Below are positions 10,543 through 64,000 of a stretch of DNA of 64,000 nucleotides, piece after piece. The position numbers were made by a program, and so were the translations under genes. This stretch comes from Thermoplasmata archaeon (GTDB lineage: Archaea > Thermoplasmatota > Thermoplasmata > Lutacidiplasmatales > UBA184): contig JAKAVQ010000004.1 in the NCBI GenBank assembly GCA_021817245.1, positions 115,403 through 179,402 on the forward strand, read 5' to 3'. How positions within the stretch are numbered: position 1 is the first letter of the stretch; each line of letters begins with the position of its first letter. The notes beneath the pieces are model-generated. The model had not been told where the DNA came from. It did not search any database and saw only the letters and a program-made list of their open reading frames with translations.

Positions 10543-10574
10543 CGGCGGTCTCCCTCGTTAGCCGTGGGTAGCGC

Positions 10575-16268: not shown

Positions 16269-16281
16269 GGAGGGACGGATC

Positions 16282-17797: not shown

Positions 17798-17823
17798 GGT
17801 CCCCGCCCACAAGGGCAGGGACC
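17798..17823. terminator. GC-rich stem-loop between convergent genes (terminator candidate)
   Basis: GGTCCCCGCCC-ACAA-GGGCAGGGACC forms an 11-bp stem (one G-U pair). It lies about 35 nt downstream of the stop of the minus-strand gene ending at 17858. There is no clear U tract. Confidence 0.3.
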
Positions 17824-17857
17824 GGCCCCCTCGGAGGGAGAAAAGGTTCTGCTGCGT

Positions 17858-23121: not shown

Positions 23122-23183
23122 AGCGTCCGAATCAACCGGGCTTCACGTTCGCCCTATCTGCGCGGACCGCCCATTGGCCGAGC

Positions 23184-34740: not shown

Positions 34741-34752
34741 GGAATCCGAATT

Positions 34753-39468: not shown

Positions 39469-39488
39469 GACGGTTCGAGGTATCCACC

Positions 39489-39938: not shown

Positions 39939-39960
39939 GCGGGACGCAGGGAGGGAAGCG

Positions 39961-40353
39961 ATGACGGAGACGACGAGCGCCGACCCGGCCGGCAAGAAGA
40001 TCCTGATGGTGATGACGACGGGACCCGAGGACCCCGACAAGACCTACGCCCCGTTCTACACGGCCGCGCTCATGGCGGCGATGGAGATCGACACGACGAT
40101 GTACTTCCTCATGCACGCTCCCGAACTCCTGAAGAAGGGCGCGGCCGAAAAGGTCCCGCTCAAGAAGGGCGGGAGCCTCAAGATGTTCGTCGACATGGCG
40201 CTCGAGAACGGCGTGAAGTTCCTGGCGTGCGCCGAGAGCTGCCGGGACCTCTGCGAGATCGCGCCCGGCGAGCTGATCGACGGCGTGAAGCTCGTCGGCT
40301 CCGCCACGATGGCCGACCTGGCGCTCGAAGCGGACTCGGTCCTGTCGTTCTAG
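39961..40353 (+). CDS. DsrE family sulfur-carrier protein
   Basis: 130 aa: KKILMVMTTGPEDPDKTYAPFYTAALMAAM ... VKFLACAESC, the DsrE-type fold with a conserved Cys. GGAGGG lies upstream. Confidence 0.8.
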   Translation: MTETTSADPAGKKILMVMTTGPEDPDKTYAPFYTAALMAAMEIDTTMYFLMHAPELLKKGAAEKVPLKKGGSLKMFVDMALENGVKFLACAESCRDLCEIAPGELIDGVKLVGSATMADLALEADSVLSF

Positions 40354-40375
40354 GGCCGGCACGAGGTCGCGCGGG

Positions 40376-41500: not shown

Positions 41501-41610
41501 GCCCCCGTCGGCAGGATCGCCCTCGGCCCGCCACGACCGATCCCTCGTCCACGGCCCGGCGCCCCGGTGCGAAGGGGCCCTCCCCCGCGGTGTGCGGTCG
41601 AGGAGAATCC

Positions 41611-41616
41611 TTTTTT
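41611..41616 (+). terminator. oligo-T tract (archaeal-type terminator candidate) after the sHdr-lbpA-lplA operon
   Basis: TTTTTT is the longest T run I noticed in this GC-rich window. It lies 111 nt after the lplA-like stop and is flanked by the GTCGA...TCGAC inverted repeat. Confidence 0.35.
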
Positions 41617-41696
41617 CGACCATCCGCTCGTTCCTCGGGCGAACGGCCCCCCGCGCCACGGTGCGGGGCGCGCGCGTCCGCAACGAGGAGACGACA

Positions 41697-46600: not shown

Positions 46601-47071
46601 CGGATCCGGATCCACGGGGACTATCACCTCGGGCAGGTCCTCTGGACCGGCAAGGAGTTCGTGATCATCGACCTCGAGGGGGAGCCGATGCGCGCGTTGA
46701 GCGAGCGGAGGCTGAAGCGCTCCCCGCTGCGGGACGTCGCGGGGATGATGCGCTCCTTCGACTACGCCGCCCGGGTCGGCCTGCGCGGCATCCCGCTCTC
46801 CCCCGACGGCGGACCGGCCGAGCGGGACGCGCTCGGGCGGCTCGCGGACCAGTGGACGGCGTGGGTCTCGGGAGCCTTTCTCCGGGGCTACTGGGCGGCG
46901 TCGGAGTCCACCCCCTATGTGCCGCACGATCCCGAGGAGCGCCGCCTCCTCCTCGGGGCGTTCGTCCTCGAAAAGGCGGTCTACGAGCTCGGGTACGAGC
47001 TGACGAACCGGCCCAGTTGGGTCGACATCCCGCTGCGCGGTCTTCTCCACCTGCTTTCCTCGGAAGGATAG
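43670..47071 (+). CDS. treS: trehalose synthase / maltokinase fusion (TreS-Mak/Pep2)
   Basis: The N-terminal GH13 TreS part has [29 protein letters not shown]...[19 protein letters not shown]. The C-terminal kinase part has [27 protein letters not shown] (maltokinase motif). ATGA overlap with glgE. Confidence 0.9.
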   Translation: [1133 protein letters not shown]

Positions 47072-47083
47072 GAAGAGGGCGGG

Positions 47084-48967: not shown

Positions 48968-48976
48968 GTATGTGCG

Positions 48977-50929: not shown

Positions 50930-51061
50930 TCCTTCACGGAGACCACGGCTCCCCTCGGTGCGACGATCTCCCCGTCCGGCGCCGCTCGATTTCTCCTCTG
51001 GGGCCCCCGACTCGATCGCCCCCGTCTCGTCCTCCGCGGTCGCTCGACCGAGCGGGTACCG

Positions 51062-52789
51062 ATGGAGCGGCTACCGAACGGCTACTGGGGCCGGGAGGTC
51101 GACGGGCTGGCACCGGGGACGCGCTACGGCTACGCTTTCGGCCCCGGAGCGGTCGTGCTTCCCGATCCCGCGTCCCGGTCCCAGCCCGAGGGAGTGCACG
51201 GGCTCTCGGAGCTCGTCGCGCCCGAGCGCTTCCGATGGCGCGACGGCGGCTGGACGGGAGTGCCGCAGGACCGCCTGATCTTCTACGAGCTCCATGTCGG
51301 GACGTTCAGTCGGAAGGGCTCGTTCGACGGCGTGGTCGCCGAGCTCGATCGGCTCGTGCGGCTTGGCGTGACGGCTCTCGAGCTTTTGCCGGTGGCCCAG
51401 TTCCCCGGCACGCGGAACTGGGGCTACGACGGCGTTTATCCGTTCGCGGTCCAGTCCTCGTACGGCGGGATCGCCGGGCTCGAACGGCTCGCCGACGCCT
51501 GTCACCGGAAGCGCCTTGCGCTCTTCGTGGACTTCGTGCCGAACCACCTCGGGCCCGAGGGGAACTACCTCGACCGCTTCGGTCCGTACTTCACCGACCG
51601 GTACCGTACGCCGTGGGGAACGGCGCTGAACTTCGACGGGCCGGCCAGCGACGAGGTGCGCCGGTTCTTCCTGGAGGCGGCGACCGGCCTGGTCGAGATC
51701 GCGCACCTCGACGGGCTGCGCGTCGATGCGGTTCATGCGATCGTCGACCCGACGGCCCGTCCGTTCCTCGCCGAGCTCACCGCCGGTCTCCGGTCGATCG
51801 GGACCCGAACCGGGATCCCGCGGCGGACGATCGCCGAGAGCGCCCTCAACGATCCCCGCGTGGCCCGGACGGAAACGGACGGTGGCCTCGGCTTCGACGC
51901 CCTGTGGAACGACGACTTCCACCACGCGCTCCATGTCGCGCTGACCGGAGAGCACGAGGGGTACTTCGTCGACTTTGACGGAGTCCGCGACCTCGCAACG
52001 GTCCTCGCGGAGGGGTTCGCGCTCGCCGGCAGGGTCTCCTCGTTCCGCGGGCGCCGACACGGCCGCCCGGCCGAGGGGCTGCCCGGCGAGGCGTTCGTGG
52101 TGTTCGCACAAAACCACGACCAGGTGGGGAATCGGCCGTTCGGCGAGCGCCTTTCGACCCTCGTTCCCTTCGAGGCGCTGAAGCTCGCCGCCGGGATCCT
52201 TCTCCTCGGTCCGTACCTCCCGCTCCTGTTCATGGGGGAGGAGTACGGCGAGCGGGCCCCGTTCCTCTACTTCACGAGCCATTCCGACCGCCGGTTGGCG
52301 AGGGCGGTGCGGGAAGGTCGGCGGAAGGAGTTCGCTGTCGCGGACGGGGGGCGTCGGCCGCCGGATCCTCAATCCCCGGGCACTTTCGCCCGGTCCCGGC
52401 TCGATCCGACCGTCGCTGCGCGGGGCCGCCCCCGCACGCTGCTTCGCCTCTATCGCCAATTGATCGCGCTGCGCCGCGCGCACGTCGCCGTGCGCCGGCT
52501 CGGGAAGACCGAGGTGGTAACTGGCCCCGATGACCCCACCGTCCTCTCGCTCGTCCGGAGCTCGGCCCCTCCGGGGGCCTCCCTTGCGGTCTTCCACCTC
52601 GGTACCGGGACGGCCCGGGCGCGCGTGGCGGGTCCCTCCGTTCCGCTCACGCTCCGGCTCGCTTCGGCCGACCGTGCGTGGGGGGGGCCCGGCACCGAGC
52701 TCCCGTCCTCGCTCCGGTCGGGTACCGGGGGGACGCTCGCCCTTCCGCCGTGGTCGTTCGCCTTCTATACGGAGAACCCTTCGGAGTGA
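51062..52789 (+). CDS. treZ: malto-oligosyltrehalose trehalohydrolase (first ATG; N-terminal domain homology continues upstream to about 50930)
   Basis: PDPASRSQPEGVHGLSELV, IFYELHVGTFS, NWGYDGVYPFAVQSSYG, DFVPNHLGPEGNY and LRVDAVHAI are TreZ motifs. The 44 codons between the in-frame glgB TGA and this ATG encode LGATISPSGAARFLLWGPRLDRPRLVL, the usual TreZ N-terminus. Confidence 0.85.
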   Translation: MERLPNGYWGREVDGLAPGTRYGYAFGPGAVVLPDPASRSQPEGVHGLSELVAPERFRWRDGGWTGVPQDRLIFYELHVGTFSRKGSFDGVVAELDRLVRLGVTALELLPVAQFPGTRNWGYDGVYPFAVQSSYGGIAGLERLADACHRKRLALFVDFVPNHLGPEGNYLDRFGPYFTDRYRTPWGTALNFDGPASDEVRRFFLEAATGLVEIAHLDGLRVDAVHAIVDPTARPFLAELTAGLRSIGTRTGIPRRTIAESALNDPRVARTETDGGLGFDALWNDDFHHALHVALTGEHEGYFVDFDGVRDLATVLAEGFALAGRVSSFRGRRHGRPAEGLPGEAFVVFAQNHDQVGNRPFGERLSTLVPFEALKLAAGILLLGPYLPLLFMGEEYGERAPFLYFTSHSDRRLARAVREGRRKEFAVADGGRRPPDPQSPGTFARSRLDPTVAARGRPRTLLRLYRQLIALRRAHVAVRRLGKTEVVTGPDDPTVLSLVRSSAPPGASLAVFHLGTGTARARVAGPSVPLTLRLASADRAWGGPGTELPSSLRSGTGGTLALPPWSFAFYTENPSE

Positions 52790-52793
52790 ACGG

Positions 52794-55214
52794 GTGCCTC
52801 GGTACGTCTGTGTCCACGGACATTTCTACCAGCCTCCCCGGGAGAACGCGTGGCTGGAGGAGGTCGAGACGCAGGACGGCGCGGCGCCGTACCACGACTG
52901 GAACGAGCGGATCACCGCCGAGTGTTACCGGCCGAACGCCTGGTCCCGCATCCTCGACAGCTCGGGACGGATCGTGCGCATCGTCAACAATTACGCGAAC
53001 ATCAGCTTCAACGTCGGGCCGACGCTGCTGAACTGGCTCGAGCGCCACGCTCCCGAGGTCTACGCCGCGATCGTCGCCGCCGACCGGACGAGCCGGGAAC
53101 GCTTCTCGGGGCACGGCTCTGCGCTCGCGCAGCCGTATCATCACTCGATCCTGCCGCTCGCCTCGCGCTCGGATAAGGAGCTCCAGATTGCCTGGGGGAT
53201 CCGGGACTTCGAGGAGAGGTTCGGCCGTTCGCCCGAAGGGATGTGGTTCCCCGAGACGGCGGTCGACCTCGAGACGCTGGACCTCGCCGCGGGAGCCGGC
53301 ATCCGGTTCACCGTCCTCTCCCCCTACCAGGCCCGACGGTTCCGTCGCCACGGCACCGAAGGATGGACGGAACCCGGCCCGGGCGACATCCCGACCACCC
53401 GCGCCTACTCGGTCCGGCTGCCGGAGGGTCGGTCGATCTCGGCCTTCTTCTACAACGGGACGATCTCTTCGGACCTCGCGTTCCACGGCTTGCTCCACAG
53501 CGGGAGCGAATTCGCCGACCGCCTCGCGTCGGCGTTCGACCCGGGCCCCGACGACGAGCCGCAGCTGGTCCACGTCGCGACGGACGGAGAGACCTACGGA
53601 CACCACCACCGCCACGGCGACATGGCGCTCGCCTTCGCGCTGGACCGGCTCGCGCACCGGTCGGACCTCGCGCTCACGAACTACGGTGAGTTCCTCGAAC
53701 GGCATCCCCCGACCCACGAAGCGGAAGTGCACTTCCCTTCCTCCTGGAGCTGCGCGCACGGGGTGGGACGCTGGCAGAGCAACTGCGGGTGCAATACGGG
53801 GCTTCGGCCGGGCTGGAGCCAGGCATGGCGCGCCCCCCTGCGGGCCGCGCTCGACGCGGTGCGCGACGAGCTCCGCCCGCAGGTCGCGCGGGCCACCGAG
53901 CCGCTCTTCACCGACCCGCGCGCTGCTCTGCTGGACTACGTACGACTGGTCGCCCACCGATCGACCGAACGGGCGGCCCAGTTCCTCGATCGGCATGCCG
54001 CCCGGACCCTCACATCCGCCGAGGCGACGACCGCGCTCTCGCTGCTCGAGATCGAACGGCAGATCCAGCAGATGTACACGAGCTGCGGATGGTTCTTTGA
54101 CGAGGTCTCGGGGATCGAGACCGTGCAGGTCCTCCAGTACGCCTCGCGCGCGCTCCAGCTGGCCCGCGACGTCCTCGGCCATCCCAACGAGGAGGGGTTC
54201 CGGGCGCTCCTCGCGAAGGCTCCGAGCAACCTCCCCGAGATCGGCGACGCCCGGGCGGTGTACGATCGGACCGTGCGACCGACCGCCATCTCGCTGCGGA
54301 ACGTCTGCGCGCACTACGCGCTGAGCTCCCTCTTCGAGGAGTATCCGGACGTCGCCTCCGTCTACTGCTACACGGTCCGGGGGCTGGAGCGAAAAGGCGC
54401 GACCGCCGGCACCGCCCGTCTCGCCGTCGGCCGGGTCGAGGTCGTCTCCGAGATCACTCTCGAATCGGCGGGGTTCACCTACGGGGCCCTGCACATCGGA
54501 GGCCAGAACCTCTTCGGCGGGGTCCGACCGTTCCTCGGCGTCGGGCCGTTCCGAGCGACCGCGACCGAGCTGCTCGAGGCGTTCGAGCGCGGCGACCTTC
54601 CCGAGACGATCCGCAGGGTCGACTCCAACTTCGGGGAGTCGACCTACACGCTGCGCCTTCTCTTCCGCGACGAGCAGCGCAAGATCGTGGGGTTGCTCTT
54701 CGACTCGATGCGGGACGGGATCGAAGCGTCGTTCCGGAGGATCTACGAGTCGACCGTGCCCATCCTCCGGAACCTCGCTTCCTCGGGCGCGGTGGCGCCC
54801 CCTGCGCTCCGGGCCGCGGCAGAGTTCTACCTGAACGAACTCGTGCGCCGCGCCCTCGACAAGTTCCCTCCCGAGACCTCCCAGGTCGGCGAGCGGCTGC
54901 GCGAGCTCGGGCGACTGAAGCTCTCGGTCGACACCGCAACGATCGGGTTCGCGTGGGCCCGAGCCGCCGAGCGGTTGATGGACGCCACGACCGAGGCGCC
55001 GAGGAACCTTGCGCTCCTGCAGAGCTTGCGCGGGCTGATCGAGCTCGCATCGGCCCACGAGGTCGAGGTCGACCTCTCCCGGGTGCAGAACCGCTACTTC
55101 GAGATCCTCGAGGCCCGCGACCGGACGACCCCCGCTCCCGGGCCGCTCGGCGCCGATGCGTGGGACCCTGAGTTCCGCGCGCTCGGCACCGCACTGGGCA
55201 TCGGGCCCCGCTAG
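52794..55214 (+). CDS. glycoside hydrolase family 57 protein (with long C-terminal DUF3536-like region)
   Basis: GTG at 52794 in track ORF 52530..55214. VCVHGHFYQPPRENAWLEEV, ISFNVGPTLLNWL and TDGETYGHHH are GH57 signatures. Confidence 0.85.
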   Translation: MPRYVCVHGHFYQPPRENAWLEEVETQDGAAPYHDWNERITAECYRPNAWSRILDSSGRIVRIVNNYANISFNVGPTLLNWLERHAPEVYAAIVAADRTSRERFSGHGSALAQPYHHSILPLASRSDKELQIAWGIRDFEERFGRSPEGMWFPETAVDLETLDLAAGAGIRFTVLSPYQARRFRRHGTEGWTEPGPGDIPTTRAYSVRLPEGRSISAFFYNGTISSDLAFHGLLHSGSEFADRLASAFDPGPDDEPQLVHVATDGETYGHHHRHGDMALAFALDRLAHRSDLALTNYGEFLERHPPTHEAEVHFPSSWSCAHGVGRWQSNCGCNTGLRPGWSQAWRAPLRAALDAVRDELRPQVARATEPLFTDPRAALLDYVRLVAHRSTERAAQFLDRHAARTLTSAEATTALSLLEIERQIQQMYTSCGWFFDEVSGIETVQVLQYASRALQLARDVLGHPNEEGFRALLAKAPSNLPEIGDARAVYDRTVRPTAISLRNVCAHYALSSLFEEYPDVASVYCYTVRGLERKGATAGTARLAVGRVEVVSEITLESAGFTYGALHIGGQNLFGGVRPFLGVGPFRATATELLEAFERGDLPETIRRVDSNFGESTYTLRLLFRDEQRKIVGLLFDSMRDGIEASFRRIYESTVPILRNLASSGAVAPPALRAAAEFYLNELVRRALDKFPPETSQVGERLRELGRLKLSVDTATIGFAWARAAERLMDATTEAPRNLALLQSLRGLIELASAHEVEVDLSRVQNRYFEILEARDRTTPAPGPLGADAWDPEFRALGTALGIGPR

Positions 55215-58061
55215 ATGGACCCGACGGTACCGTCCGCGACGTACCGCCTCCAACTCGATGCGCGCTTCGACCTCGATGCCGCCCGACGGCTCCTTCCGTA
55301 CCTCCGCCGGCTCGGCATCGATACCCTCTACCTTTCCCCGGTGCTGGAGTCCCGGCGCGGCAGCCGCCATGGGTACGACGGGGTTCGTCCGGATCGGATC
55401 GATCCCGGGCGCGGGGGGGAGAACGGCTTCCGGCGACTCGTCCGCGACGCCCGGCGGAACCACCTCGCGCTCCTCCTCGACATCGTGCCGAACCACCTCG
55501 CCGCATCGTTGGAGAATCCGGCCTGGGCCGACGTTCTCGCTCGGGGACCGAGCTCGCGGTTCGCCCGCCTGTTCGACATCGACTGGAATCGAGCGCCCGG
55601 TCGGCCGAAGCTCGCGCTTCCCTGGCTCGAAGAAGAGCTCCCCGAAAGCTTCCGGAGCGGCAAGGTCGCGTTCGTTCGGCAAGGCCGCCGCCTCGTGCTT
55701 CGCTGCGGCGGCGTTTGCCTCCCGGTCCCCGGCGACGTTCTGCGTCACCTGCGCTTGACGGAGGGGTCCCGGCGCCGCGGCGGTGCGCGCGAGCGACGGG
55801 CGATCTCCCGCGCGCTCGAGCGCGTGAACGCCGGTAGTTCGGCCGGGGACCGTGCGCTACGGGACGCGCTGCTCGACCGCCTCTGGTATCGATTGATCCC
55901 GTGGCGCTCCTACTCTGAGGTCAACTACCGCCGCTTCGCCGACGTCGCCGATCTCGTCGCCGTGCGCTCCGACACGCCCTTCGGGTTTCGGGCCGTTCAC
56001 GGTCGGCTCCTCGCCGCCGTCGCCGCCGGAGGGATCCGGGGGGTCCGGGTCGACCACGTCGACGGGATCGCACGGCCAGCCGTGTACCTCCGCCGCCTAC
56101 GTCGCGCGCTCGACCGGGCGCGCCCGAAAGGCGCCGGGGCTCGGCCGTACGTCGTCGTGGAGAAGATCCTCTCCCCCGAGGAACGGCTGCGGGCGGACTG
56201 GCCCGTAGATGGCACGACGGGCTACGAGGCGCTCCACCGGATCACCGGGGTCTTGCTGCCGGCCGCCTCCGGACCGGCTCTGGACTCGGCCTATCGACGC
56301 GTCTGCCCGCGGAGCCCGAACGACTACGGCGCGATCGCGTTCGCGGCGAAGCGGGAGGTCATCGACCGGCTGTTCCCGGGCGAACGGGCCGCACTGGCGC
56401 GACGGCTTTCCGTTGTCCGTGCCGACCCCCCGGCCTCGGAGGAGCGGTGGCGTGACGCGATCGGAGGGCTGACGGCGGCGCTCTCCGTCTACCGGACCTA
56501 TCTGCGGCCGGAGGGCGTCGCGCAGGAGGACCTCGCGTACCTGCGGGCCGCGCGCCGGGAACTCTCGTCGCGGGACCCCTCCCTCGCCGCGACGGCAGAG
56601 AGCCGGGCCCTTCTGCGCGGGCTCGGATCCGGCGAGCTGGTGCGCCGGGCGCCCGAGGCGGTCGAGCGGTGGCAGCAGTGGAGCACGGCGGTGGCTGCGA
56701 AGGGGACGGAGGACACGGCGTTCTACCGGTTCCCACGCTTTCTCGGCGCGAACGAGGTCGGTGGAGATCCGGCGAAGGTCGGCAGTTCTCTCCAGGAGTT
56801 CCACGCGTTCATGGCCGAACGCGCGCGGCGCTGGCCTGACGGACTCACTGCCACGTCGACCCATGATTCGAAATGGGGGGAGGACGCCCGCGCGCGCGCG
56901 ATCGCGCTCGGGGAGCACGCCGCCGACTGGTCGCGGGCCGCCGACCGGTGGGCCCGGCGGCTCTTGACGGCCTCGGGGACGGTCACGCGGGCTGGTGGAT
57001 CCGGCTCGGCGGAGACGTACCGGCTCTTCCAGGTCTGGGCCATGACCGCTCCGGCGGACCGGCCGTTCGGCGCAAGCTATCTGCGCCGCCTCGAGGACCA
57101 CGTCCGCAAGGCGACGCGGGAGGCGAAGCAGGAGAGCTCCTGGACCCTCCCGGATCTGACGACCGAGGACCGGCGGATCGCGACTGTGAGGCACCTGGCC
57201 CGGGCTCCCGGCGCCGACCGTTTCCGCCGCGAATTCTCCCGCTGGCTCCGTCGCCTGGACCGTTTCGGTCGGTACTACGCGCTCGCCCAGGTCGCTCTCC
57301 GTACGACGGTGCCGGGAATCCCGGACCTCTACCAGGGATCGGAGGGCTGGAACCTCTCGATGGTGGACCCGGACAACCGGCGGGAGGTCCGGTTCCGACG
57401 CTTCGAACGCGGGTTGCAGCAGCTCGACCGCGAGGGCCTTCACGCCCGGATCCCCGAACGCCGGCTGCGACCGGGGCGCACCGGTCCGGGCGAGCTCCTC
57501 AAGCTCGCGGTCACCGCGCGTCTCCTCCGCTACCGCGCCGCAAACCCGCTCCTCTTCGCTCAGGGCCGCTACCTTCCGCTCAATGAGCTCGGGCGCCCGA
57601 ACGTTCCGGACCCGGTCCTCGCCTTTGCGCGCCGGACCGAGCGGGCGTGGCTCCTGACGGTCGTGGGCCGCGGTCTCGCCGCGGTCGCCGGGACGACCTG
57701 GCGGGGGCCGATCGGTTCCCGGTGGCGAGGCCGCGCCCTCCGGCTTCCGCGCACGGCGCCGGGGGAATGGACGGATGTGCTCACGGGCCGGACGACCGCC
57801 GCGACCCGCCGGGGCCCCGATCGCGTCCTTCTCCTGGAGCGGCTCTTCGCCGACCTTCCCCTCGCCGTGCTGTCGGGAGGCGATGCGGACCCACTCCCTC
57901 CGGCCCGCAGCGGAGGCACCGGCCCGGTCGAGAGATCTCGGATCCGGCGGGCCGGGCCGGTCAATCGAAGCGGGGGGCCGACGCGACGAGCCGTTCCAGC
58001 TCCGGCCGCTCGGGGGCGCCGGGCGGGAGGGACTCGAGCGCGGAGGGGTGGCCCGGGGTGA
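55215..58061 (+). CDS. treY: malto-oligosyltrehalose synthase
   Basis: TYRLQLDARFDLDAARRLLPYLRRLGIDTLYLSPVLESRRGSRHGYD, LLDIVPNHL, VRVDHVDG and TSTHDSKWGEDAR are TreY signatures. The ATG abuts the GH57 TAG. The last 57 codons or so are an Arg/Gly/Pro-rich tail that overlaps the convergent gene. Confidence 0.88.
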   Translation: MDPTVPSATYRLQLDARFDLDAARRLLPYLRRLGIDTLYLSPVLESRRGSRHGYDGVRPDRIDPGRGGENGFRRLVRDARRNHLALLLDIVPNHLAASLENPAWADVLARGPSSRFARLFDIDWNRAPGRPKLALPWLEEELPESFRSGKVAFVRQGRRLVLRCGGVCLPVPGDVLRHLRLTEGSRRRGGARERRAISRALERVNAGSSAGDRALRDALLDRLWYRLIPWRSYSEVNYRRFADVADLVAVRSDTPFGFRAVHGRLLAAVAAGGIRGVRVDHVDGIARPAVYLRRLRRALDRARPKGAGARPYVVVEKILSPEERLRADWPVDGTTGYEALHRITGVLLPAASGPALDSAYRRVCPRSPNDYGAIAFAAKREVIDRLFPGERAALARRLSVVRADPPASEERWRDAIGGLTAALSVYRTYLRPEGVAQEDLAYLRAARRELSSRDPSLAATAESRALLRGLGSGELVRRAPEAVERWQQWSTAVAAKGTEDTAFYRFPRFLGANEVGGDPAKVGSSLQEFHAFMAERARRWPDGLTATSTHDSKWGEDARARAIALGEHAADWSRAADRWARRLLTASGTVTRAGGSGSAETYRLFQVWAMTAPADRPFGASYLRRLEDHVRKATREAKQESSWTLPDLTTEDRRIATVRHLARAPGADRFRREFSRWLRRLDRFGRYYALAQVALRTTVPGIPDLYQGSEGWNLSMVDPDNRREVRFRRFERGLQQLDREGLHARIPERRLRPGRTGPGELLKLAVTARLLRYRAANPLLFAQGRYLPLNELGRPNVPDPVLAFARRTERAWLLTVVGRGLAAVAGTTWRGPIGSRWRGRALRLPRTAPGEWTDVLTGRTTAATRRGPDRVLLLERLFADLPLAVLSGGDADPLPPARSGGTGPVERSRIRRAGPVNRSGGPTRRAVPAPAARGRRAGGTRARRGGPG

Positions 58062-58974
58062 CCGAATAGGCCTCGATGAGCTCGGGACCTGCCACGACCG
58101 CGGCCAGATAGCGATCGGCGCCCGGGGCGGAGAAGACGAGGAGCCCCCGCGGTCCGGCGATGCGGATCCTCCGGACGAGGCCGGGGGTGGACGAAGAGGA
58201 GGGCGGAAGCTCCCGCCAGGAGGGATCGCCGTGCCGCACGAGCGTCTCCGACCGGAAGCGGGCTTCCTCCGCCGTCGTGGGTGCCCCGGGACGGACGCGA
58301 AAGAGGCCCTCCGCCTCGAACGCCGTAACGAGCTGGGTCGTGAGCTCCTCCGCCCTGGGCACGGTGCCCGCCTCCGCCTCCCAGGAGGAGACGGCTCGCT
58401 CGACCTCCCGCCGGAGCAACGGCCGGAGGGCGGGGTCGGGAAGCCGGTACAGGTCCGCCATCGCTCGGTGGTCCGTCCGGAGGAGGAAACCACCGACCAG
58501 GATGTGGGCTCCCTCCCAGTCGCCCCCGGCGTTCCCCGAGACCTTGCGGTCCCCCACCACGATATCGCTCGGAGGACGCAGGGACGCCGGCAGTCCCAGC
58601 TGCCGGGCCGCGCGCACCGGGGCCGCGAGGTAGTGTGCGAGGTCGCCGGGGCCGCCCGGTCCCCCGCCGTCGTCGCGGTACACGAGCTGGTAGAACAGCT
58701 GGTCGCGATCGAGGTACGTCGTCCCCCCGCCCTCCACCCGACGCAGGACCGGAAGGCGGCGACGTTCGAGGAACCCGGGGTCGATCTCCTCCCGGAACGA
58801 CTGGTGGAATCCGAGGGAGACGTACGGGGCCGACGGGCGGACGATGATGAGCGTGTTGGGAGCGAGGCCGCGACCGACCGCCTCGGCCAGCGCTTCGACG
58901 AACGTCTGGGCCCGAGCCGGTTCCGCGATGCCGAGCTCGAGGAGCCGCCAGACGGGCAGTTCTCCGCCCGCCAT
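57961..58974 (-). CDS. lipoate-protein ligase-like protein (second copy)
   Basis: ATG at 58974 (MAGGELPVWRLLELG) within track ORF 57961..59178. It has LIIVRPSAPYVSLGFHQ, VLRRVEGGGTTYLD and a catalytic Lys in VGDRKVSGNAGG. Confidence 0.8.
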   Translation of the reverse strand: MAGGELPVWRLLELGIAEPARAQTFVEALAEAVGRGLAPNTLIIVRPSAPYVSLGFHQSFREEIDPGFLERRRLPVLRRVEGGGTTYLDRDQLFYQLVYRDDGGGPGGPGDLAHYLAAPVRAARQLGLPASLRPPSDIVVGDRKVSGNAGGDWEGAHILVGGFLLRTDHRAMADLYRLPDPALRPLLRREVERAVSSWEAEAGTVPRAEELTTQLVTAFEAEGLFRVRPGAPTTAEEARFRSETLVRHGDPSWRELPPSSSSTPGLVRRIRIAGPRGLLVFSAPGADRYLAAVVAGPELIEAYSVTPGHPSALESLPPGAPERPELERLVASAPRFD

Positions 58975-58991
58975 CGAGGGGTCCGCGCCGC

Positions 58992-59390
58992 TCACCCCGT
59001 ACCCTCGGACCCGACCGGCGTTCCCAGCCGCTCGAGCGCCTCGGGATCCTTCGGCTTCCAGCGACACAGCCAGGCCGCCCCGAGCGGGTCCCGGTGGAGG
59101 AGGCTGGGGTCGCTCTCGAGCGCTGAGTTCGTGTCGAGGACCGTCCCATCGACGGGCAGCGCGAGATGTCCGACCCACTTGTCCGACTCGATCGACATCG
59201 CCGGCTCGCGGGCCCGGTAATATCGACCGGGCTCCGGCCCCCGGTACCGGGCGACCCGCCCGGCGCGTCGCTCGGCCCCGTCGGTCAGTCCGAGCAAGTA
59301 GCTCCCGTCGGCCTCCCGGCGGTACCAGAGATCGGGGCCCACCGCGCAGGCCTTCCCCGGAGGGAGCGCGGATGCGGCCGACGGGCTCAT
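58992..59390 (-). CDS. lbpA: lipoate-binding protein LbpA (GcvH-like), second copy
   Basis: 132 aa with lipoyl-lysine motif MSIESDKWVGHLALPVDGTV and DPLGAAWLCR. It ends 17 nt upstream of the ligase gene. Confidence 0.8.
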   Translation of the reverse strand: MSPSAASALPPGKACAVGPDLWYRREADGSYLLGLTDGAERRAGRVARYRGPEPGRYYRAREPAMSIESDKWVGHLALPVDGTVLDTNSALESDPSLLHRDPLGAAWLCRWKPKDPEALERLGTPVGSEGTG

Positions 59391-59394
59391 CGCC

Positions 59395-60081
59395 CTAGTG
59401 GGGGGGCGCGGCGGTGGCGCGACCGAGCCGTTTCAGGAGGACGAGCGCGACCTTGAGGCCCCGTTGGGTCTCGGGATCGCCGAGCGCGCGTCCGAGGGAG
59501 AAGATCCCCGATACCTCGGGAATCTCCTGGATCGCCTTCTCGCGCGCGTTGGGGTCGCCGAGCACCTCGGTCGAGTCGGAGAGCATCGCGAGCGTCGGTG
59601 CGGCCCGGACGGCCGCATGGACGAGCGGCTCGATCTCCTCCTTCGGCGGCAACGACTCGACGAAGTGGATCCAGCCGATGGCGGAAGCGCCGGCGTGAGC
59701 CACCATGTGGTCCGTCGTCGCCTGGGAGACGCCGACGAGACCCTCCGCGAGCGTCACGAGCGTCTCGAGGGCACCGGTCTCCTTCCATTCGGCGAGCCGG
59801 TCGATGAGGTAGAGGACGGTGTCCCGACGCCGCTCGTCCTGGGCGATCCAGTCGAGCAGCGAGAGCGCCCCGATGAGGGTGGAGCCGGCCGAGACCAGCA
59901 TGCGGTCGGTGACCGCGTCGGAGACCCCGACCGCTCCCTCGGCGAGGGAGAACAGGCGGTCGAGCGTCCCGTCCGACTGCCAGCGGGCGAGCCGCTCTCC
60001 GAGGAGCTGGAGGGTGGCGGTGCCGTCGGGGGGCGAGGTCGGCGTGGGGGTGGGGGACGATGCGGCAGGAGGTGCAGTCAT
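59395..60081 (-). CDS. DUF1641-like protein
   Basis: ATG at 60081 in track ORF 59395..60762. It has two internal repeats (LDRLFSLAEGAVGVSDAVTDRMLVSAGS / LETLVTLAEGLVGVSQATTDHMVAHAGA), typical of the DUF1641 proteins that accompany NADH-dehydrogenase/SQR-like flavoproteins. Confidence 0.6.
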   Translation of the reverse strand: MTAPPAASSPTPTPTSPPDGTATLQLLGERLARWQSDGTLDRLFSLAEGAVGVSDAVTDRMLVSAGSTLIGALSLLDWIAQDERRRDTVLYLIDRLAEWKETGALETLVTLAEGLVGVSQATTDHMVAHAGASAIGWIHFVESLPPKEEIEPLVHAAVRAAPTLAMLSDSTEVLGDPNAREKAIQEIPEVSGIFSLGRALGDPETQRGLKVALVLLKRLGRATAAPPH

Positions 60082-60092
60082 GGTGGCACCCC

Positions 60093-61241
60093 TCAGAACA
60101 GCGCCCGCGCCGTCAAGTCCCAGTACGTCCGGTTGTAGATCACTTTGTTCCAGTAGTGCGCGAACGACGGGGTCGGCGGGTGCGGGGGGTGCAGGTAGTC
60201 GAACTTGATGTACGTCGCCTGGGCGAGACCGGTCATGATCCAGCAGTAGACCCGGCCCTCGTAGCGGGCGGTCGGCGTCTCCCCCCGGACCATGGACGCG
60301 ACGTTCTGCGTGACGACCTCCGCCTCGTAGTCGGCGGTCGATCCCGCCTTCGAGATCGGGATGTTGGTCGCATCCCCGAGCACGAAGACGTTCTCCTTTC
60401 CGTCGGCCTTGAGGCTGTAGCGGTCCGTCGGGATCCAGTTCCCCTTGTCGCCGAGCCCGGATGCGCCGACGTAATCGGAGCCCCGGTGCGGGGGAATCGC
60501 GATGAGCAGGTCGTAGGGGATCGATTCCCCCTCGACGCCCTTGATCGTCTTTCCCGCCGGATCGATCTTCTCGACGTTGAACGGGATGTGGATGTTGACG
60601 CCGCGCTCGCCCATCAGGCGCTGCATCGGAGCGGCGACCGTGTCGATCCCGAAGACCTTCGGGATCGGGTAGGTGTAGTGGATCTCGCACTTCTCGCGGA
60701 TCCCGCGGGATCGGAGGAAGTCGTCGAGCATGAACGTCACCTCGAGCGGAGCGACCGGGCACTTGTACGGCATTCCCGCGACCGAGATCACGACCTTCCC
60801 GCCCGAGAAGGAATGCAGTGCCGTGCGCAGCTTCTGGGCGTTGGCGAGGTCGTAGAAACTGTGCGCTCCCTCGACAAAACCGGGGGTAAGCTCGGGGTGA
60901 ATCACCGAGCCGCTCGCGATGACCAGGATGTCGTACGTGAGCTCCTTGCCTCCCTTCAGGAGGATCTTGTTCGCGGCGGAGTCCACCTTCTCGACCTCCG
61001 CCTTCACGAGCTGGATGGAGTGGTGGAGCAACTGGCTCTCGTCCCGACGGGTCTCCTCGGGACGCATCTTCTCGAAGACGACCATGAGGTAGCCCGGTTG
61101 GTAGGCATGGATGCCTTCCCGGTCGACCAGCTGGATCTGGACCTGGCCTCCTGCGACCTCGGCCTCCAGCGCCTTGCGAATCCGGTTCGCCACCGTCGTT
61201 CCGCCGATGCCGCCTCCCAGTACGACCACACGCTTCGCCAC
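60093..61241 (-). CDS. sulfide:quinone oxidoreductase-like FAD-dependent pyridine nucleotide-disulfide oxidoreductase
   Basis: GTG at 61241 is preceded by GGAGGA. FAD site KRVVVLGGGIGG, PYKCPVAPLE (SQR-type conserved Cys segment), FVLGDATNIP, and a C-terminal Cys in GRVYCWIMTG. Confidence 0.75.
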   Translation of the reverse strand: MAKRVVVLGGGIGGTTVANRIRKALEAEVAGGQVQIQLVDREGIHAYQPGYLMVVFEKMRPEETRRDESQLLHHSIQLVKAEVEKVDSAANKILLKGGKELTYDILVIASGSVIHPELTPGFVEGAHSFYDLANAQKLRTALHSFSGGKVVISVAGMPYKCPVAPLEVTFMLDDFLRSRGIREKCEIHYTYPIPKVFGIDTVAAPMQRLMGERGVNIHIPFNVEKIDPAGKTIKGVEGESIPYDLLIAIPPHRGSDYVGASGLGDKGNWIPTDRYSLKADGKENVFVLGDATNIPISKAGSTADYEAEVVTQNVASMVRGETPTARYEGRVYCWIMTGLAQATYIKFDYLHPPHPPTPSFAHYWNKVIYNRTYWDLTARALF

Positions 61242-61261
61242 AGTTTCCTCCGTTCCGTTCG

Positions 61262-61540
61262 TTACTCGTGCGACTTGCGGATCACGTACCGGTCGAAACC
61301 GGACTCGTTCTCCACCTTGATCAGCTCGTGTCCGGCCTTCGTGAGCCACATCGGGACATCCTTGCGGGACCCCTCGTCGCTCGAGAGCAGCTCGAACTCG
61401 GTGCCGACCGGCTCCTCCTTGATCACGCGGACCAGCTCCATGAGCGGGCCGGGGCACCAGCTGCCCCGGGCATCGACGACCATCCGGTGGAGGTCCTTCC
61501 CTTCCGGGTCCACGGCCGGTGGGACAGCGTCTCCGCTCAT
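61262..61540 (-). CDS. tusA: sulfurtransferase TusA family protein
   Basis: VVDARGSWCPGPLMELVRVIKE is the Cys-Pro-x-Pro TusA motif. Confidence 0.88.
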   Translation of the reverse strand: MSGDAVPPAVDPEGKDLHRMVVDARGSWCPGPLMELVRVIKEEPVGTEFELLSSDEGSRKDVPMWLTKAGHELIKVENESGFDRYVIRKSHE

Positions 61541-61974
61541 ATGAAGTAACTGACGCTGGCCGATCGCGTGCGGTCGATGAACGTCGCCACTCCCGTCACG
61601 CTTTCCACCAGGGGGTCGAGGTCCGCCTTCGTGAGACCGAGGATCTCCATCGACTGGGAGCAGGCGTAGATGTGGAGCTCGCCGAGCGATTTCGCCATCT
61701 CGAGGATCGCCTTCCAGTTCGGGGCGTTCTTGCGGCGGAGCGCCTCCTCGAGCGCCGTTCCGCCTTCCCCATGGCCGGGGCTCACCGATGCGGGGGGCGG
61801 GCCGGCACGGGCCTTGAAGGCGACGAGACCCCAGTAGCTCGCGAAGACGTCGACCCTCATGCCCATCGCGATCGCCCCGCTCACCAGCGTCGCGAACGGG
61901 AGCAGCTTGTCGGCGGCATCCTCCGTGAGGACGATCGCCATCTGTTCGTTCGGGGGGGCCGCGTCGTCCGCCAT
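61537..61974 (-). CDS. DsrE/DsrF-like family sulfur-carrier protein
   Basis: MAIVLTEDAADKLLPFATLVSGAIAMGMRVDVFASYWGL ... LHIYACSQSMEILGL is the DsrE-family pattern. ATGA overlap with the downstream tusA. Confidence 0.8.
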   Translation of the reverse strand: MADDAAPPNEQMAIVLTEDAADKLLPFATLVSGAIAMGMRVDVFASYWGLVAFKARAGPPPASVSPGHGEGGTALEEALRRKNAPNWKAILEMAKSLGELHIYACSQSMEILGLTKADLDPLVESVTGVATFIDRTRSASVSYFI

Positions 61975-61998
61975 GCGCGGCCCCCCCTTCCCCCCGCT

Positions 61999-62454
61999 CT
62001 AGATGAACAGGGTGAGGGCGTCCGGCCGGGACGCAAGCTCGAGATACGTGCTCGCCCCGATCACGTCATCGACCTCGTTCACCAGGCTCGACTTGGTCAT
62101 GCCGAACATGTCCATCGTCGGCGAGCAGGCGTGGATGTGAACCCCGGCCTGCTTCGCCTGCTGCATGAACTGCTCGACCGTAGGGAACTTCGCGGCGATC
62201 GCCCGCTGCATCTCGGGCGGGAAGACGTCCATCGACTTCTTGCGTCCCTCGGGGGTCAAGAGCTGCATCCCCCAGAACGTGAAGTAGATGTGCGCGTCCA
62301 TTCCGAGCGCCCTCGCCGTGGTCGCGAGGATGAGCGAGGGGTAGGCCATGTCGGCTCCACCCTTCGACATCACGAGGATGAGGGACTTCTTTCCCTCGCG
62401 CTTCGCCGCTTCGATCGTCTCTGTGCCCTTCGCCGCCGCTGCTCCTCCTGTCAT
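61999..62454 (-). CDS. DsrE/DsrF-like family sulfur-carrier protein
   Basis: ATG at 62454 is preceded by GGAGGA. LILVMSKGGADMAYPSLILATTARALGMDAHIYFTFWGM ... VHIHACSPTMDMFGM. The rest of track ORF 61999..62964 is rejected. Confidence 0.8.
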   Translation of the reverse strand: MTGGAAAAKGTETIEAAKREGKKSLILVMSKGGADMAYPSLILATTARALGMDAHIYFTFWGMQLLTPEGRKKSMDVFPPEMQRAIAAKFPTVEQFMQQAKQAGVHIHACSPTMDMFGMTKSSLVNEVDDVIGASTYLELASRPDALTLFI

Positions 62455-62477
62455 GGTTCCTCCGGTTCCCCCTTTCC

Positions 62478-62714
62478 TTACTTGTGTTCCAGCACGAATC
62501 GGTACGTTCCCGCGTCCTCGGTATGCTCGCGCAACGGGTGGCCGGTGCGCTTCGAGAACGCGACGAAATCCGACGGAGCCGCCGGATCGTCGGCGAGCAC
62601 TTCGAGCCGCTCGCCCGGCTTCAACGACTCGATCATCTGACTCGCCTTCAGGATCGGCATCGGACAGAAGAGTCCCCGCGCGTCGAGCCGAGCGTTCGTA
62701 GCCGAAGCGGTCAT
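62478..62714 (-). CDS. tusA: sulfurtransferase TusA family protein
   Basis: LDARGLFCPMPILKASQMIESL is the canonical TusA motif. 78 aa. Confidence 0.9.
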   Translation of the reverse strand: MTASATNARLDARGLFCPMPILKASQMIESLKPGERLEVLADDPAAPSDFVAFSKRTGHPLREHTEDAGTYRFVLEHK

Positions 62715-62758
62715 GAAAACAATCCTCGCCGGGGGATACCGACTTCGCTATTTTGACT

Positions 62759-63172
62759 TTACGATTGTCCAAGTAGCGCGTCGCGGCCGATCCCTTCTCC
62801 GGACCGGGAGTCGTGGATCCGCACGTCGCGTCGCTCAACGATCGTGCCCTTCGGCACCGTGAGGACGTTTCGATAGGCCGGGAAGAGGTCCTTTCCGTAC
62901 CTCTCCTCCAGCAGGGGATTCTCCTCGCGCAACGCGACCTCCCCGAGCGCGAGGAACTCGTCATCTTCCCGCAGGAGGATCCCGCCGGCGTGGAAGATCG
63001 GACCCGGGATCCGTTCGGGCCGGTCCGGGAACTCGAGCGGGTTCGGGTCTCGGTACCGGACGTAGACCAGGACGACCTCGGGCGAGGGGGCGCCGGCGAC
63101 CTCGGAAGGTCGCAACGGCGCCTCCGGGTGCATCGGCAGGGGAGTGAACGGCACAGGGACCTCCTCGGTCAT
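62759..63172 (-). CDS. hypothetical protein, cysteine-free, translationally coupled to the dsrEFH-like genes
   Basis: ATG at 63172 overlaps the upstream gene stop (ATGA). 137 aa, MTEEVPVPFTPLPMHPEAPL...VVLVYVRYRDPNPLEFPD...GGILLREDDEFLALGEV... No family recognised and no Cys. Confidence 0.5.
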   Translation of the reverse strand: MTEEVPVPFTPLPMHPEAPLRPSEVAGAPSPEVVLVYVRYRDPNPLEFPDRPERIPGPIFHAGGILLREDDEFLALGEVALREENPLLEERYGKDLFPAYRNVLTVPKGTIVERRDVRIHDSRSGEGIGRDALLGQS

Positions 63173-63495
63173 GAGAGCTGGACCACCTTCTCGGCCGACA
63201 TGAGCGCTTCGACCAGCTCCGGATAGGTCACCGTCCGGCCGAGCGCCCCCGGGGGCAGCCGTAGTCCGCGTCCCGACCGGTCGGCCTCGAGGACCCAGCA
63301 GGGGACGTCCGGCACGGTCGGAGCGCTCGCTGAGCGTTCGGCGTCGTACGCCGCGGTGCCGGTCAGCACCTCGACCACTTCGCGCTCGATCTCGCGGGCC
63401 TCCCGCACCACTTCCCTCAACACGCCGGCCTCCTCGACGGACAACGGTCCGGACCGCACGAGGATCCAGCGCCGGGGCTCGATCCCGGCGCTCAC
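63169..63495 (-). CDS. DsrH/TusB-like protein
   Basis: The C-terminus TVTYPELVEALMSAEKVVQLS resembles the DsrH/TusB C-terminal pattern. It is third in an E-F-H-like gene order. GTG at 63495 overlaps the upstream TGA; an alternative GTG is at 63516. Confidence 0.55.
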   Translation of the reverse strand: MSAGIEPRRWILVRSGPLSVEEAGVLREVVREAREIEREVVEVLTGTAAYDAERSASAPTVPDVPCWVLEADRSGRGLRLPPGALGRTVTYPELVEALMSAEKVVQLS

Positions 63496-63860
63496 AGGGG
63501 GACCACCTTCCCGCACCGAACCACCCAGCGGGCGGCCTCAGCGTCGTCCACGATTGCGACCGGCACATCGAAGCGGAGCGCACCGGGGTCAAGGCCCCGC
63601 CGCGCGAGCGACGGGCCGTGGACAAGGGCCGGCCGCTCCGGGGTCACGATCCCCGCGAGCGACTTCGCGATCGGCGGACCATAGCGAAATGGCTCCGGGC
63701 CCGGGACGACCGCCCGCACTCCTTCGGCGACGAACAGGAAACGCACCGTCTCTCCCAGCGCGGTCGCCATCGCCGCCAACCGGATCGACTCCGCGAGATG
63801 CACCGTCGAGAACGGTGGGCTCCGCACCCAGAGTAGGGTCGATGGGGGTCGGTCCGTCAC
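63492..63860 (-). CDS. DsrF/TusC-like protein
   Basis: 122 aa: LLWVRSPPFSTVHLAESIRLAAMATALGETVRFLFVAEGV shows the DsrE/F-fold pattern without the active-site Cys segment. It sits between the DsrE-like and DsrH-like genes. The GTG start overlaps the upstream TGA. Confidence 0.6.
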   Translation of the reverse strand: MTDRPPSTLLWVRSPPFSTVHLAESIRLAAMATALGETVRFLFVAEGVRAVVPGPEPFRYGPPIAKSLAGIVTPERPALVHGPSLARRGLDPGALRFDVPVAIVDDAEAARWVVRCGKVVPL

Positions 63861-64000
63861 GTCTCTCCCGTGAACGCGAGGAACCGATCCGAGCTGTTCA
63901 GGAGGTCGACGAGGTCCTCGAGCGTACCGTTCCGGGCCCCGGGGAAGAGGTCCTCATCCCGCAGTCCGCGAAACCGGGCGCAGGTGGCGCAGGTCACGAC
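63857..64000 (-). CDS. DsrE/TusD-like protein, C-terminal fragment (gene continues beyond the right edge)
   Basis: Manual minus-strand translation gives ...VVTCATCARFRGLRDEDLFPGARNGTLEDLVDLLNSSDRFLAFTGET*. The Cys-x-x-Cys-A-x-x-RG segment and C-terminal pattern are as in DsrE/TusD. Confidence 0.6.
   Translation of the reverse strand, partial: VVTCATCARFRGLRDEDLFPGARNGTLEDLVDLLNSSDRFLAFTGET

Follow-up and report, generated by a model that had tools for sequence, protein, structure and literature searches.

A 64,000-nt stretch of a Thermoplasmata archaeon contig (JAKAVQ010000004.1; the whole stretch is called the window below) ends in a minus-strand array of genes for sulfur carriers and for a sulfide:quinone oxidoreductase (SQR). 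The original prediction, made from the sequence alone, had described twelve head-to-tail genes at 57961–64000, joined by 4-nt overlaps or short spacers, with the operon start past the window edge. All twelve genes (g1 to g12, counted from the window edge) are present there, GTGA or ATGA overlaps are found at the g1/g2, g2/g3, g3/g4, g7/g8, and g11/g12 junctions, and the contig continuation adds upstream genes as foreseen. In the public assembly (ENA ERZ27237313, 194.8 kb, locus L001), from which the operon start was taken, the window's contig supplies the full dsrE, a gene for a 79-aa protein (h79), and the first gene of the array, which encodes a NUBPL/Mrp-type P-loop nucleoside triphosphatase (NTPase; PF10609, 245.7 bits). 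Since two further genes lie upstream on the contig, the array counts 14 genes at window-equivalent coordinates 57961–65372 (Table 1).

The junctions of the 14 genes comprise six 4-nt overlaps (five within the window), one 1-nt overlap, and gaps of 4, 11, 20, 23, 24, and 44 nt, several of which contain GGAGG-like motifs. The array was scanned for AT-rich boxes and oligo-T runs (a sigma-70 promoter/terminator scan was not used because the host is archaeal), and no run of five or more T was found across it. The 14 genes are presumably co-transcribed. Their order is colinear in two other Thermoplasmata metagenome-assembled genomes (MAGs; loci L002 and L003) with 39–91% amino acid identity per gene, indicating a conserved array, as opposed to open reading frames (ORFs) that follow one another by chance. 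Gene identities, catalytic residues, gene order, and conservation are matters of direct observation here. Pfam and NCBIfam back all window-gene assignments except those of the gene at the dsrH position and h137, the dsrF-like gene being sub-threshold. Four modules are fused in the array: mrp-h79-dsrEF(H)-h137, tusA1-dsrE(g6), dsrE(g7)-tusA2-sqr-DUF1641, and lbpA2-lplA2.

The flavoprotein of the third module, previously called SQR-like, is a type III SQR by its best profile and PDB matches. The best family is NF049943 (type III SQR, selenoprotein subtype; 361 bits, E = 6e-108), and the runner-up family scores 60 bits. The 361 bits fall under the NF049943 cut-off of 525 bits, as is expected of a Cys-containing member without selenocysteine. 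The best PDB relative is human SQOR (6oi5, E = 1.6e-39, 140 bits), ahead of FCSD (76 bits), type V (74 bits), type I (53 bits), and NDH-2 (~40 bits). The redox cysteines (Cys159/Cys339-type), which the original prediction had singled out for checking, are both there: C161 (PYKCPVAP) aligns to the catalytic C201 of human SQOR and C333 (VYCWIMTG) to the catalytic C379, and both correspond in position to the cysteines given for type III in PMC13047784. Both are invariant in an alignment of 16 sequences with 45–88% identity (alignment A1), and both Cys motifs are retained in 71 of the 77 family members of the fetched loci. An NDH-2 identity is ruled out by the two cysteines and by the type III SQR profile match, which is far stronger than that to NDH-2. 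The family is large (3712 matches at E ≤ 1e-20, more than 600 genome stretches), and the nearest SQRs, at 84–85% identity, come from Thermoplasmata archaeon hot-spring MAGs.

The gene that begins 11 nt past sqr encodes a DUF1641 protein. It should be noted in particular, since it is probably the most informative feature of the array, which the original prediction had called just a partner of the flavoprotein. A DUF1641 gene lies directly 3′ of sqr in 53 of 77 loci, and PF07849 was confirmed in nine of ten sampled sqr neighbors from ten different lineages. Nothing conserved was found downstream of sqr as a replacement partner in the Chloroflexota loci that have no DUF1641. The protein is predicted to be all-helical (AlphaFold2 (AF2), 25-sequence alignment) and contains an internal repeat, residues 30–62 (RLARWQSDGTLDRLFSLAEGAVGVSDAVTDRML) resembling residues 95–127 (RLAEWKETGALETLVTLAEGLVGVSQATTDHMV). 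Two or three copies of G-x-L-[DE]...D-x-x-[TV]-[DE] repeats are also seen in the DUF1641 homologues of Sulfolobaceae, Marsarchaeota, and Ferrovum. A single-sequence PDB search with the protein gave no match; its profile matches Bacillus subtilis ForE1/YjgD (8rqz, E = 0.032) over the C-terminal domain.

The DUF1641 proteins HucM, ForE, and Ncp have been described as quinone-conducting scaffolds in work of 2021–2026 (PMC8808070, PMC13524794). ForE is needed for menaquinone binding and for the formate:menadione activity of ForCE (PMC8808070), and HucM and Ncp form tetrameric hydrophobic quinone-conducting tubes for Huc and Ndh, respectively; B. subtilis Ndh has none of the usual membrane-binding residues and relies on Ncp via a specialized C-terminus (PMC13524794). 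The present protein resembles these in being small, cofactor-less, and helical, with a C-terminal PF07849 and a gene beside that of a quinone-reducing oxidoreductase without a transmembrane anchor. It differs from them in that its partner is an SQR and not a hydrogenase, formate dehydrogenase, or NDH-2, in its archaeal host, and in its greater length (228 aa) with the internal repeat. By this analogy the DUF1641 protein is a putative quinone-conducting scaffold for SQR, and an SQR–DUF1641 complex is offered as a well-motivated hypothesis, not as a result. No paper linking DUF1641 with SQR was found in the literature searched for DUF1641; a proteomics table for Ignicoccus contains an adjacent, co-induced pair of a DUF1641 protein (Iho_0672) and an FAD-dependent disulfide oxidoreductase (Iho_0673) (PMC3149612).

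The C-termini of the SQRs in L002–L081 were compared in this connection. The SQR family is short (~380 aa) and stops 27 residues past the SQOR-aligned region, whereas human SQOR runs on for 57. All DUF1641-linked SQRs end in ...YW.(S/T)ARG(L/I)L (ARGLL in 30 of 57), and a ...VPKGRV tail is found in the 20 loci without DUF1641, mostly from Chloroflexota. This correlation is confounded by phylogeny, since the DUF1641-less loci are essentially from one clade. The C-terminus is of near-equal length with and without DUF1641 (85 versus 89 residues after SKAGS), the difference being confined to the terminal motif.

Both TusA proteins of the array have the N-terminal CPxP cysteine. The two DsrE-family proteins g6 and g7 share their best PDB match, Sulfolobus solfataricus DsrE2B (2qs7; E = 2.6e-20 and 3e-24, respectively), with which they align end to end, including the ACS motif. 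The most conserved gene of the array is g6, with 91% identity in L002 and 81% in L003; it is rarer than g7, and its best relative outside the lineage (52% identity) is a DsrE encoded beside tusA-lplA-lbpA in a Marsarchaeota MAG. In other loci, 59 DsrE genes sit immediately upstream of tusA-sqr, and the g7 protein is the best match for 41 of these. The g7 protein would represent an SQR-linked DsrE type (DsrE4/DsrE2-like), its neighborhood fitting the context by which the DsrE4 group was defined, namely the place beside sqr and tusA (Liu et al. 2014, PMC4175335). TusA is encoded three times in this genome, alongside at least five further DsrE-family genes and another pair of LbpA and ligase.

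The LbpA2 protein, whose gene starts 4 nt past the DUF1641 gene, falls under the GcvH equivalog cut-offs (59–79 bits versus 116–117) and is not a bona fide GcvH. Its lipoyl-Lys motif is IESDKW (ESEKW in L002 and L003). The lplA2 gene follows with a GTGA 4-nt overlap. LbpA2 and LplA2 are 37% and 34% identical, respectively, to LbpA1 (39558–39863) and LplA1 (40376–41500), which are encoded on the plus strand at the end of a type II sHdr cluster in the same window (33904–41500; shdrC1-B1-A-H-B3, then lbpA1-dsrE-lplA1). The etf genes are not in this cluster; etf is found past the window edge at L001 1–361. A glycogen/trehalose block of ~16 kb on the plus strand (41500–58061), with alpha-amylase-family genes, GH57, and a treY-like gene, separates the shdr cluster from the operon, and the treY-like gene (55215–58061) is convergent with lplA2 and shares 101 nt with its 3′ end. 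In the relative L002 (compared over 13270–21000), lplA2 directly abuts lplA1-dsrE-lbpA1-shdr, which suggests that the block is an insert in a single sulfur island. On the other side of the operon start, L001 1–5745 encodes, in divergent orientation, DUF1059, ferredoxin, AprB, AprA, metallophosphoesterase, TauE, DUF1634, and Etf proteins; this gene set offers a possible route for sulfite oxidation and export beside the relay operon.

A genome scan with the SQR alignment matched more than 600 stretches, of which 80 loci were kept and their ORFs searched by iterative hidden Markov models. TusA is encoded directly 5′ of sqr in 65 of 75 evaluable loci, archaeal and bacterial, and a DsrE-family gene lies upstream of sqr in 55 of the 75. 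Two TusA/DsrE pairs occur in about 25 of 67 loci, and the Chloroflexota loci have two DsrE-TusA pairs without DUF1641. The archaeal loci come from Thermoplasmata, Marsarchaeota, Sulfolobaceae, Archaeoglobus, and Haloarculaceae, and the bacterial ones from Bacillota, Leptospirillia, Nitrospirota, and Alpha-, Beta-, and Gammaproteobacteria. The dsrE-tusA-sqr-DUF1641 core is thus a widespread cassette, and its sqr-TusA-DsrE trio lies at the heart of this operon, as it does in most of the 81 related loci. The conservation of the gene linkage, to which the original prediction had tied its own validity, is therefore found both in the wide spread of the cassette and in the colinearity of the 14 genes in L002 and L003. 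The fusion of the cassette with the DsrEFH-like/Mrp genes and a second lbpA-ligase pair occurs only in this Thermoplasmata lineage. In one relative of 49% identity (L083, 7643–9485, minus strand), genes for an ArsR/HTH_5-type regulator, a DsrE, and a second SQR/FCSD-like flavoprotein are divergent from tusA-sqr-dsrE; the regulator may be a persulfide-sensing one for the cassette.

The cassette lies beside shdr, etf, or lbpA in about ten independent loci, including L002, L004 (Marsarchaeota), L005, L082, and the proteobacterial loci L008, L022, L024, L026, and L056. In L082, a 73%-identical relative, dsrE-tusA-sqr-DUF1641-etfB-etfA is followed by emo on the opposite strand and then by shdrC1B1AH. 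In L022 (the isolate Microbaculum sp. FT89) and L026 (Alphaproteobacteria), shdrC1-B1-A-...-B, lbpA, two dsrE-tusA pairs, sqr, and DUF1641 are all on one strand, the cassette forming the 3′ end of alphaproteobacterial shdr-lbpA clusters. That lineages so far apart have the cassette beside shdr speaks for a functional connection, and a functional tie of the SQR cassette to the sHdr-LbpA system is plausible on these gene neighborhoods. The path from sulfide oxidation into a protein-persulfide cascade that the original prediction had suggested is supported in part.

We lean, by a modest degree, towards the reading that the 14-gene operon joins its four modules for cytoplasmic sulfur oxidation, with sulfide oxidation by SQR/DUF1641, a TusA-DsrE relay, and a feed to sHdr through LbpA2. 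SQRs are monotopic membrane enzymes that release polysulfide or require a small-molecule acceptor. Here, the type III SQR would oxidize H2S at the Cys161/Cys333 pair and FAD, and the electrons would reach the membrane quinone through the DUF1641 protein, which, like HucM, ForE, and Ncp, may form a helical scaffold that brings the quinone to an enzyme only weakly anchored in the membrane by itself. The SQR-bound sulfane sulfur would not be freed as polysulfide; TusA2 would take it up and pass it to a DsrE-type carrier. The tusA1-dsrE(g6) products would be a second carrier pair, of the type seen beside lbpA and shdr, and send the sulfur onward, and lbpA2-lplA2 would equip the type II sHdr encoded at 33.9–41.5 kb with a lipoylated carrier reserved for it and with the matching ligase. 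Both the hand-over of persulfide to TusA and the delivery to sHdr-LbpA are steps that we infer. The sHdr complex would convert the protein-bound sulfane sulfur to sulfite, which AprBA, encoded just upstream of the operon, could oxidize further. The mrp-h79-dsrE-dsrF-(dsrH)-h137 products may form an extra relay station or serve the maturation of the Fe-S-rich sHdr and Apr enzymes.

We also propose tentatively, with the balance tilted somewhat against it, that SQR-DUF1641 is a fourth class of DUF1641 respiratory complex after Huc, ForCE, and Ndh-Ncp, and the first for sulfur metabolism and for Archaea, in which a largely soluble SQR would obtain quinone via the conduit and give persulfide directly to TusA, hard-wired here to sHdr-LbpA through a dedicated LbpA. 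If the pairing is real and the SQRs work with such a conduit and a protein persulfide acceptor, the principle of the quinone-conducting scaffold would reach sulfide oxidation and Archaea, and it would be explained how toxic sulfane sulfur stays protein-bound from SQR to the cytoplasmic oxidation machinery. These data suggest that sulfide is a substrate that enters sHdr directly by way of SQR. Cultured carriers of the cassette are Microbaculum sp. FT89, Magnetospirillum fulvum, Archaeoglobus fulgidus, and Sulfobacillus.

Several observations weigh against this relay from SQR to sHdr, which for this organism builds on sequence and published analogues. The similarity of the DUF1641 protein to the solved member ForE1 is confined to a 38-residue domain, and its monomer AF2 model is poor (predicted local distance difference test (pLDDT) 59, predicted template modeling score 0.33), with nothing under E = 0.7 in a Foldseek search against the PDB. 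The type III SQR of Caldivirga is reported to bind membranes unaided (Lencina et al., 2013), and the scaffold may not be obligatory for SQR. The closest solved relative of g6 and g7 is DsrE2B. A tblastn search for DsrC/TusE with E. coli TusE gave nothing under E = 2 in the 64-kb window and no match at E ≤ 1e-3 in L001–L003; the query detects a 58%-identical match beside dsrEF in the Magnetospirillum locus L046. An lbpA-lplA pair straight after DUF1641 is found only in L001–L003, which are three closely related loci. The shdr genes lie within 10 kb in only about 10 of 83 loci, and the cassette is also present in organisms not known for sHdr (Archaeoglobus, Ignicoccus, and Methylacidiphilum). 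Since most loci carry the cassette alone, it can work without sHdr.

A further point is the AT-rich element TAAAGTCAAAATAGC, which lies within the 44-nt gap, the widest between genes of the array. The element ends 32 nt ahead of the tusA1 ATG, is kept in L002 and L003, and lies in a window of ~70% G+C, in which 12-mers with at least nine A/T start at just 32 of 64,000 positions. The element may be an internal archaeal promoter with a B recognition element (BRE) and TATA box, giving a second transcript from tusA1 to lplA2. The original prediction had named internal promoters or terminators that split the array into unrelated units as an argument against it. There is a possible promoter before tusA1, but the two units that it would create are related to each other, and the search for T5 runs returned none.

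In the genes upstream of this element, the original prediction had seen a heterotrimer-type DsrEFH. This is shown for the E subunit only, F being a sub-threshold match and H being DsrH-like by position and size. The DsrE protein of the trio (PF02635, 50.2 bits) has A. vinosum DsrE as its best PDB match (2hy5_A, E = 3.6e-7), and the active-site Cys78 of the latter aligns to the first Cys of 'VVTCATCARFRG'. The dsrF-like gene overlaps dsrE by GTGA and is 48–57% identical in L002 and L003. For the protein at the dsrH position, Pfam, NCBIfam, and PDB searches gave no match, a word-seeded search of a database of 5.8e9 proteins gave three homologues, and hhalign against E. coli TusB gave a probability of 7%. 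Its AF2 model (pLDDT 55) has a beta-alpha-beta topology, the fold search with it returned only thioredoxin-like noise, and its lone cysteine is not conserved. The h137 protein is conserved in L002 and L003 at an identity of 60–62%. When 1.84e9 representatives were searched in full with HMMER, only 10 weak relatives emerged at E ≤ 1e-3, and none of the nine that were scanned has a significant Pfam match. The h79 protein, with the conserved motif ...LFYDS.VDLG.LVR....YVCT..GW, is found in L005 too. As in DsrEFH/TusBCD, three consecutive small genes (~110–120 aa) have overlapping stops and starts and the first is a clear DsrE with the Cys78 equivalent; unlike in those systems, the second subunit is sub-threshold, the third is unrecognizable by sequence or model, and the trio is flanked by the Mrp-like ATPase and two orphan proteins, with no DsrC/TusE found nearby. 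A published account of YTD clusters includes a divergent 'DsrEFH-like' trio, DsrE/Chp1/Chp2 (PMC13047784).

This module may be biosynthetic, that is, it may supply sulfur or Fe-S for sHdr, Apr, or thiolated cofactors outside the dissimilatory relay, which would be compatible with the relay reading for the remaining genes. The NUBPL/Mrp-type iron-transfer P-loop NTPase at its head, the work of TusBCD-type complexes in thiolation, and the lack of a DsrC/TusE gene nearby speak for such a role, as does the possible internal promoter, which sets the module apart from the rest. In L005, a more distant Thermoplasmata MAG, mrp-h79-dsrE-dsrF is retained and adjoins lplA-dsrE-lbpA, not sqr; the full DsrEFH-like set is found only in the closest relatives, L002 and L003. 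Mrp/Nbp35 proteins usually carry CPxC. The Mrp-like protein, however, has CPHG in its place, the module is confined to four loci, and DsrE retains the Cys78-equivalent persulfide-carrying cysteine of dissimilatory relays. We consider a biosynthetic role unlikely but quite conceivable.

It is rather unlikely, in our estimate, that the modules are juxtaposed yet functionally independent within a shared sulfur-metabolism island. The dsrE-tusA-sqr-DUF1641 cassette would then be self-contained for sulfide detoxification and sulfane handling, as it is where sHdr is lacking, and lbpA2-lplA2 and tusA1-dsrE(g6) would serve sHdr only. The cassette stands alone in most of the 81 loci, including those of Archaeoglobus, Leptospirillia, Bacillota, and Chloroflexota, and in L082 it comes without lbpA-lplA; the conserved AT-rich element could begin a separate transcript, and the operon of Methylacidiphilum is tied to detoxification of H2S to S0 (PMC10205796). 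Against such independence stand the junctions from tusA1 to lplA2, which are gaps of 4–24 nt and a 4-nt overlap with no oligo-T terminator, the order kept in three diverged Thermoplasmata MAGs, and the position of the cassette beside shdr/lbpA in two or more lineages that are very far apart (Thermoplasmata/Marsarchaeota and Alphaproteobacteria).

It is very improbable that the flavoprotein acts on a protein-bound substrate and not on free sulfide, with electrons passing to quinone via DUF1641 (for example, by reoxidizing dihydrolipoyl-LbpA2, or by oxidizing or reducing TusA/DsrE-bound persulfide or polysulfide): although lbpA2 begins 4 nt past the DUF1641 gene, SQRs and dihydrolipoamide dehydrogenases have a common fold of two dinucleotide-binding domains with a redox-active cysteine pair (Pyr_redox_2), and the family is present in sulfur/sulfate reducers with no obvious need for sulfide oxidation (PMC3149612), the closest characterized relatives are sulfide oxidases (NF049943 type III SQR and human SQOR), LbpA adjoins the cassette in a small minority of loci while TusA is almost universal, and the homologous Methylacidiphilum operon is sulfide-induced (PMC10205796).

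The preferred relay reading should also be placed among known systems. The original prediction had not recognized the arrangement from any described system. The combination of SQR, TusA, and DsrE is in fact already published: a type III-like SQR is encoded beside TusA and DsrE in the tusA-sqr-dsrE4 'sulfur island' of Metallosphaera cuprina (Mcup_1722–1724; PMC4175335), and an sqr(type III)-tusA-dsrE operon in Methylacidiphilum fumariolicum (MFUM_v2_0219-21; Schmitz et al. 2023, PMC10205796) is upregulated by H2S. The DUF1641 gene is mentioned in neither paper, and the present array differs from both systems in its two TusA/DsrE pairs, DsrEFH-like set, Mrp-like ATPase, LbpA, and ligase. The core cassette is a known one. 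The TusA/DsrE3/LbpA cascade for sHdr has been described by Tanabe et al. 2024 (PMC11094781), where type II denotes shdrC1B1AHB3-etfAB-emo clusters and DsrE3B is reported as the sole transferase in type II Thermoplasmatota. As in those sHdr-LbpA systems, TusA, DsrE-type proteins, LbpA, and lipoate ligase accompany shdr here, and the window has a type II cluster. Unlike in that report, the genome has more transferases than DsrE3B, so that the sulfurtransferase set of Thermoplasmata with type II sHdr is much richer than reported, and an SQR was not described there within shdr clusters. Neither the SQR-DUF1641 pairing nor the fusion of the cassette with LbpA/ligase and the DsrEFH-like module is described in the literature searched. 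Recent structures of DUF1641 proteins lend the pairing a plausible mechanism.

Table 1. Coordinates of the array genes, the AT-rich element, and the Hdr-type loci of the window
Feature	Position	Strand	Remarks
h79, 79-aa orphan	L001 6790-7029		one cysteine
dsrE (TusD/DsrE-type), 3′ part	63857..64000	(-)	cut at window edge; full gene 118 aa, L001 7029-7385
dsrF-like, 122 aa	63492..63860	(-)	PF02635 21.5 bits vs cut-off 22.7; TIGR03010 TusC/DsrF E 0.0015
dsrH-position gene, 108 aa	63169..63495	(-)	DsrH-like by position and size only
h137 hypothetical, 137 aa	62759..63172	(-)	cysteine-free; no Pfam match
AT-rich element TAAAGTCAAAATAGC	62747..62761	(-)	in the 44-nt gap
tusA1, 78 aa	62478..62714	(-)	PF01206 80.9 bits; CPMP motif
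dsrE-family g6, 151 aa	61999..62454	(-)	PF13686 100 bits; HACS cysteine
dsrE-family g7, 145 aa	61537..61974	(-)	PF13686 61 bits; YACS cysteine
tusA2, 92 aa	61262..61540	(-)	directly 5′ of sqr; PF01206 63.6 bits; CPGP motif
sqr, type III SQR, 382 aa	60093..61241	(-)	PF07992, NF049943; N-terminal GGGIGG motif
DUF1641 gene, 228 aa	59395..60081	(-)	PF07849 37.7 bits vs cut-off 21, residues 185-221
lbpA2 (GcvH-like), 132 aa	58992..59390	(-)	PF01597 79.8 bits; alternative GTG start 59342 giving 116 aa
lplA2, lipoate-protein ligase, 344 aa	57961..58995	(-)	PF21948 89.3 bits, residues 26-227
shdrC1	33904-34740	(+)	
shdrB1	34753-36057	(+)	
shdrA, shdrH	between shdrB1 and shdrB3	(+)	
shdrB3	37981-39468	(+)	
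lbpA1	39558-39863	(+)	
dsrE of shdr cluster	39960-40353	(+)	
lplA1	40376-41500	(+)	
DsrE	9835-10344	(+)	second Hdr-type locus
TusA	10617-10820	(+)	second Hdr-type locus
MvhD/FlpD	10830-11252	(+)	second Hdr-type locus
HdrA::GltD-like fusion, 910 aa	11253-13985	(+)	second Hdr-type locus; followed by a 577-aa HdrA-like protein, HdrC, HdrB

A second Hdr-type locus, not of the sHdr type, occupies 9835–17250 on the plus strand; it is unusual for a DsrE-TusA pair to precede an MvhD-HdrABC-type complex. Neither an Rfam family nor a tRNA was detected in the window. Two very large Ser/Thr/Gly-rich proteins (1248 and 1416 aa), which have hydrophobic anchors at the C-terminus and numerous N-x-S/T sites, are encoded divergently at 19375–26972 and probably belong to the cell surface.

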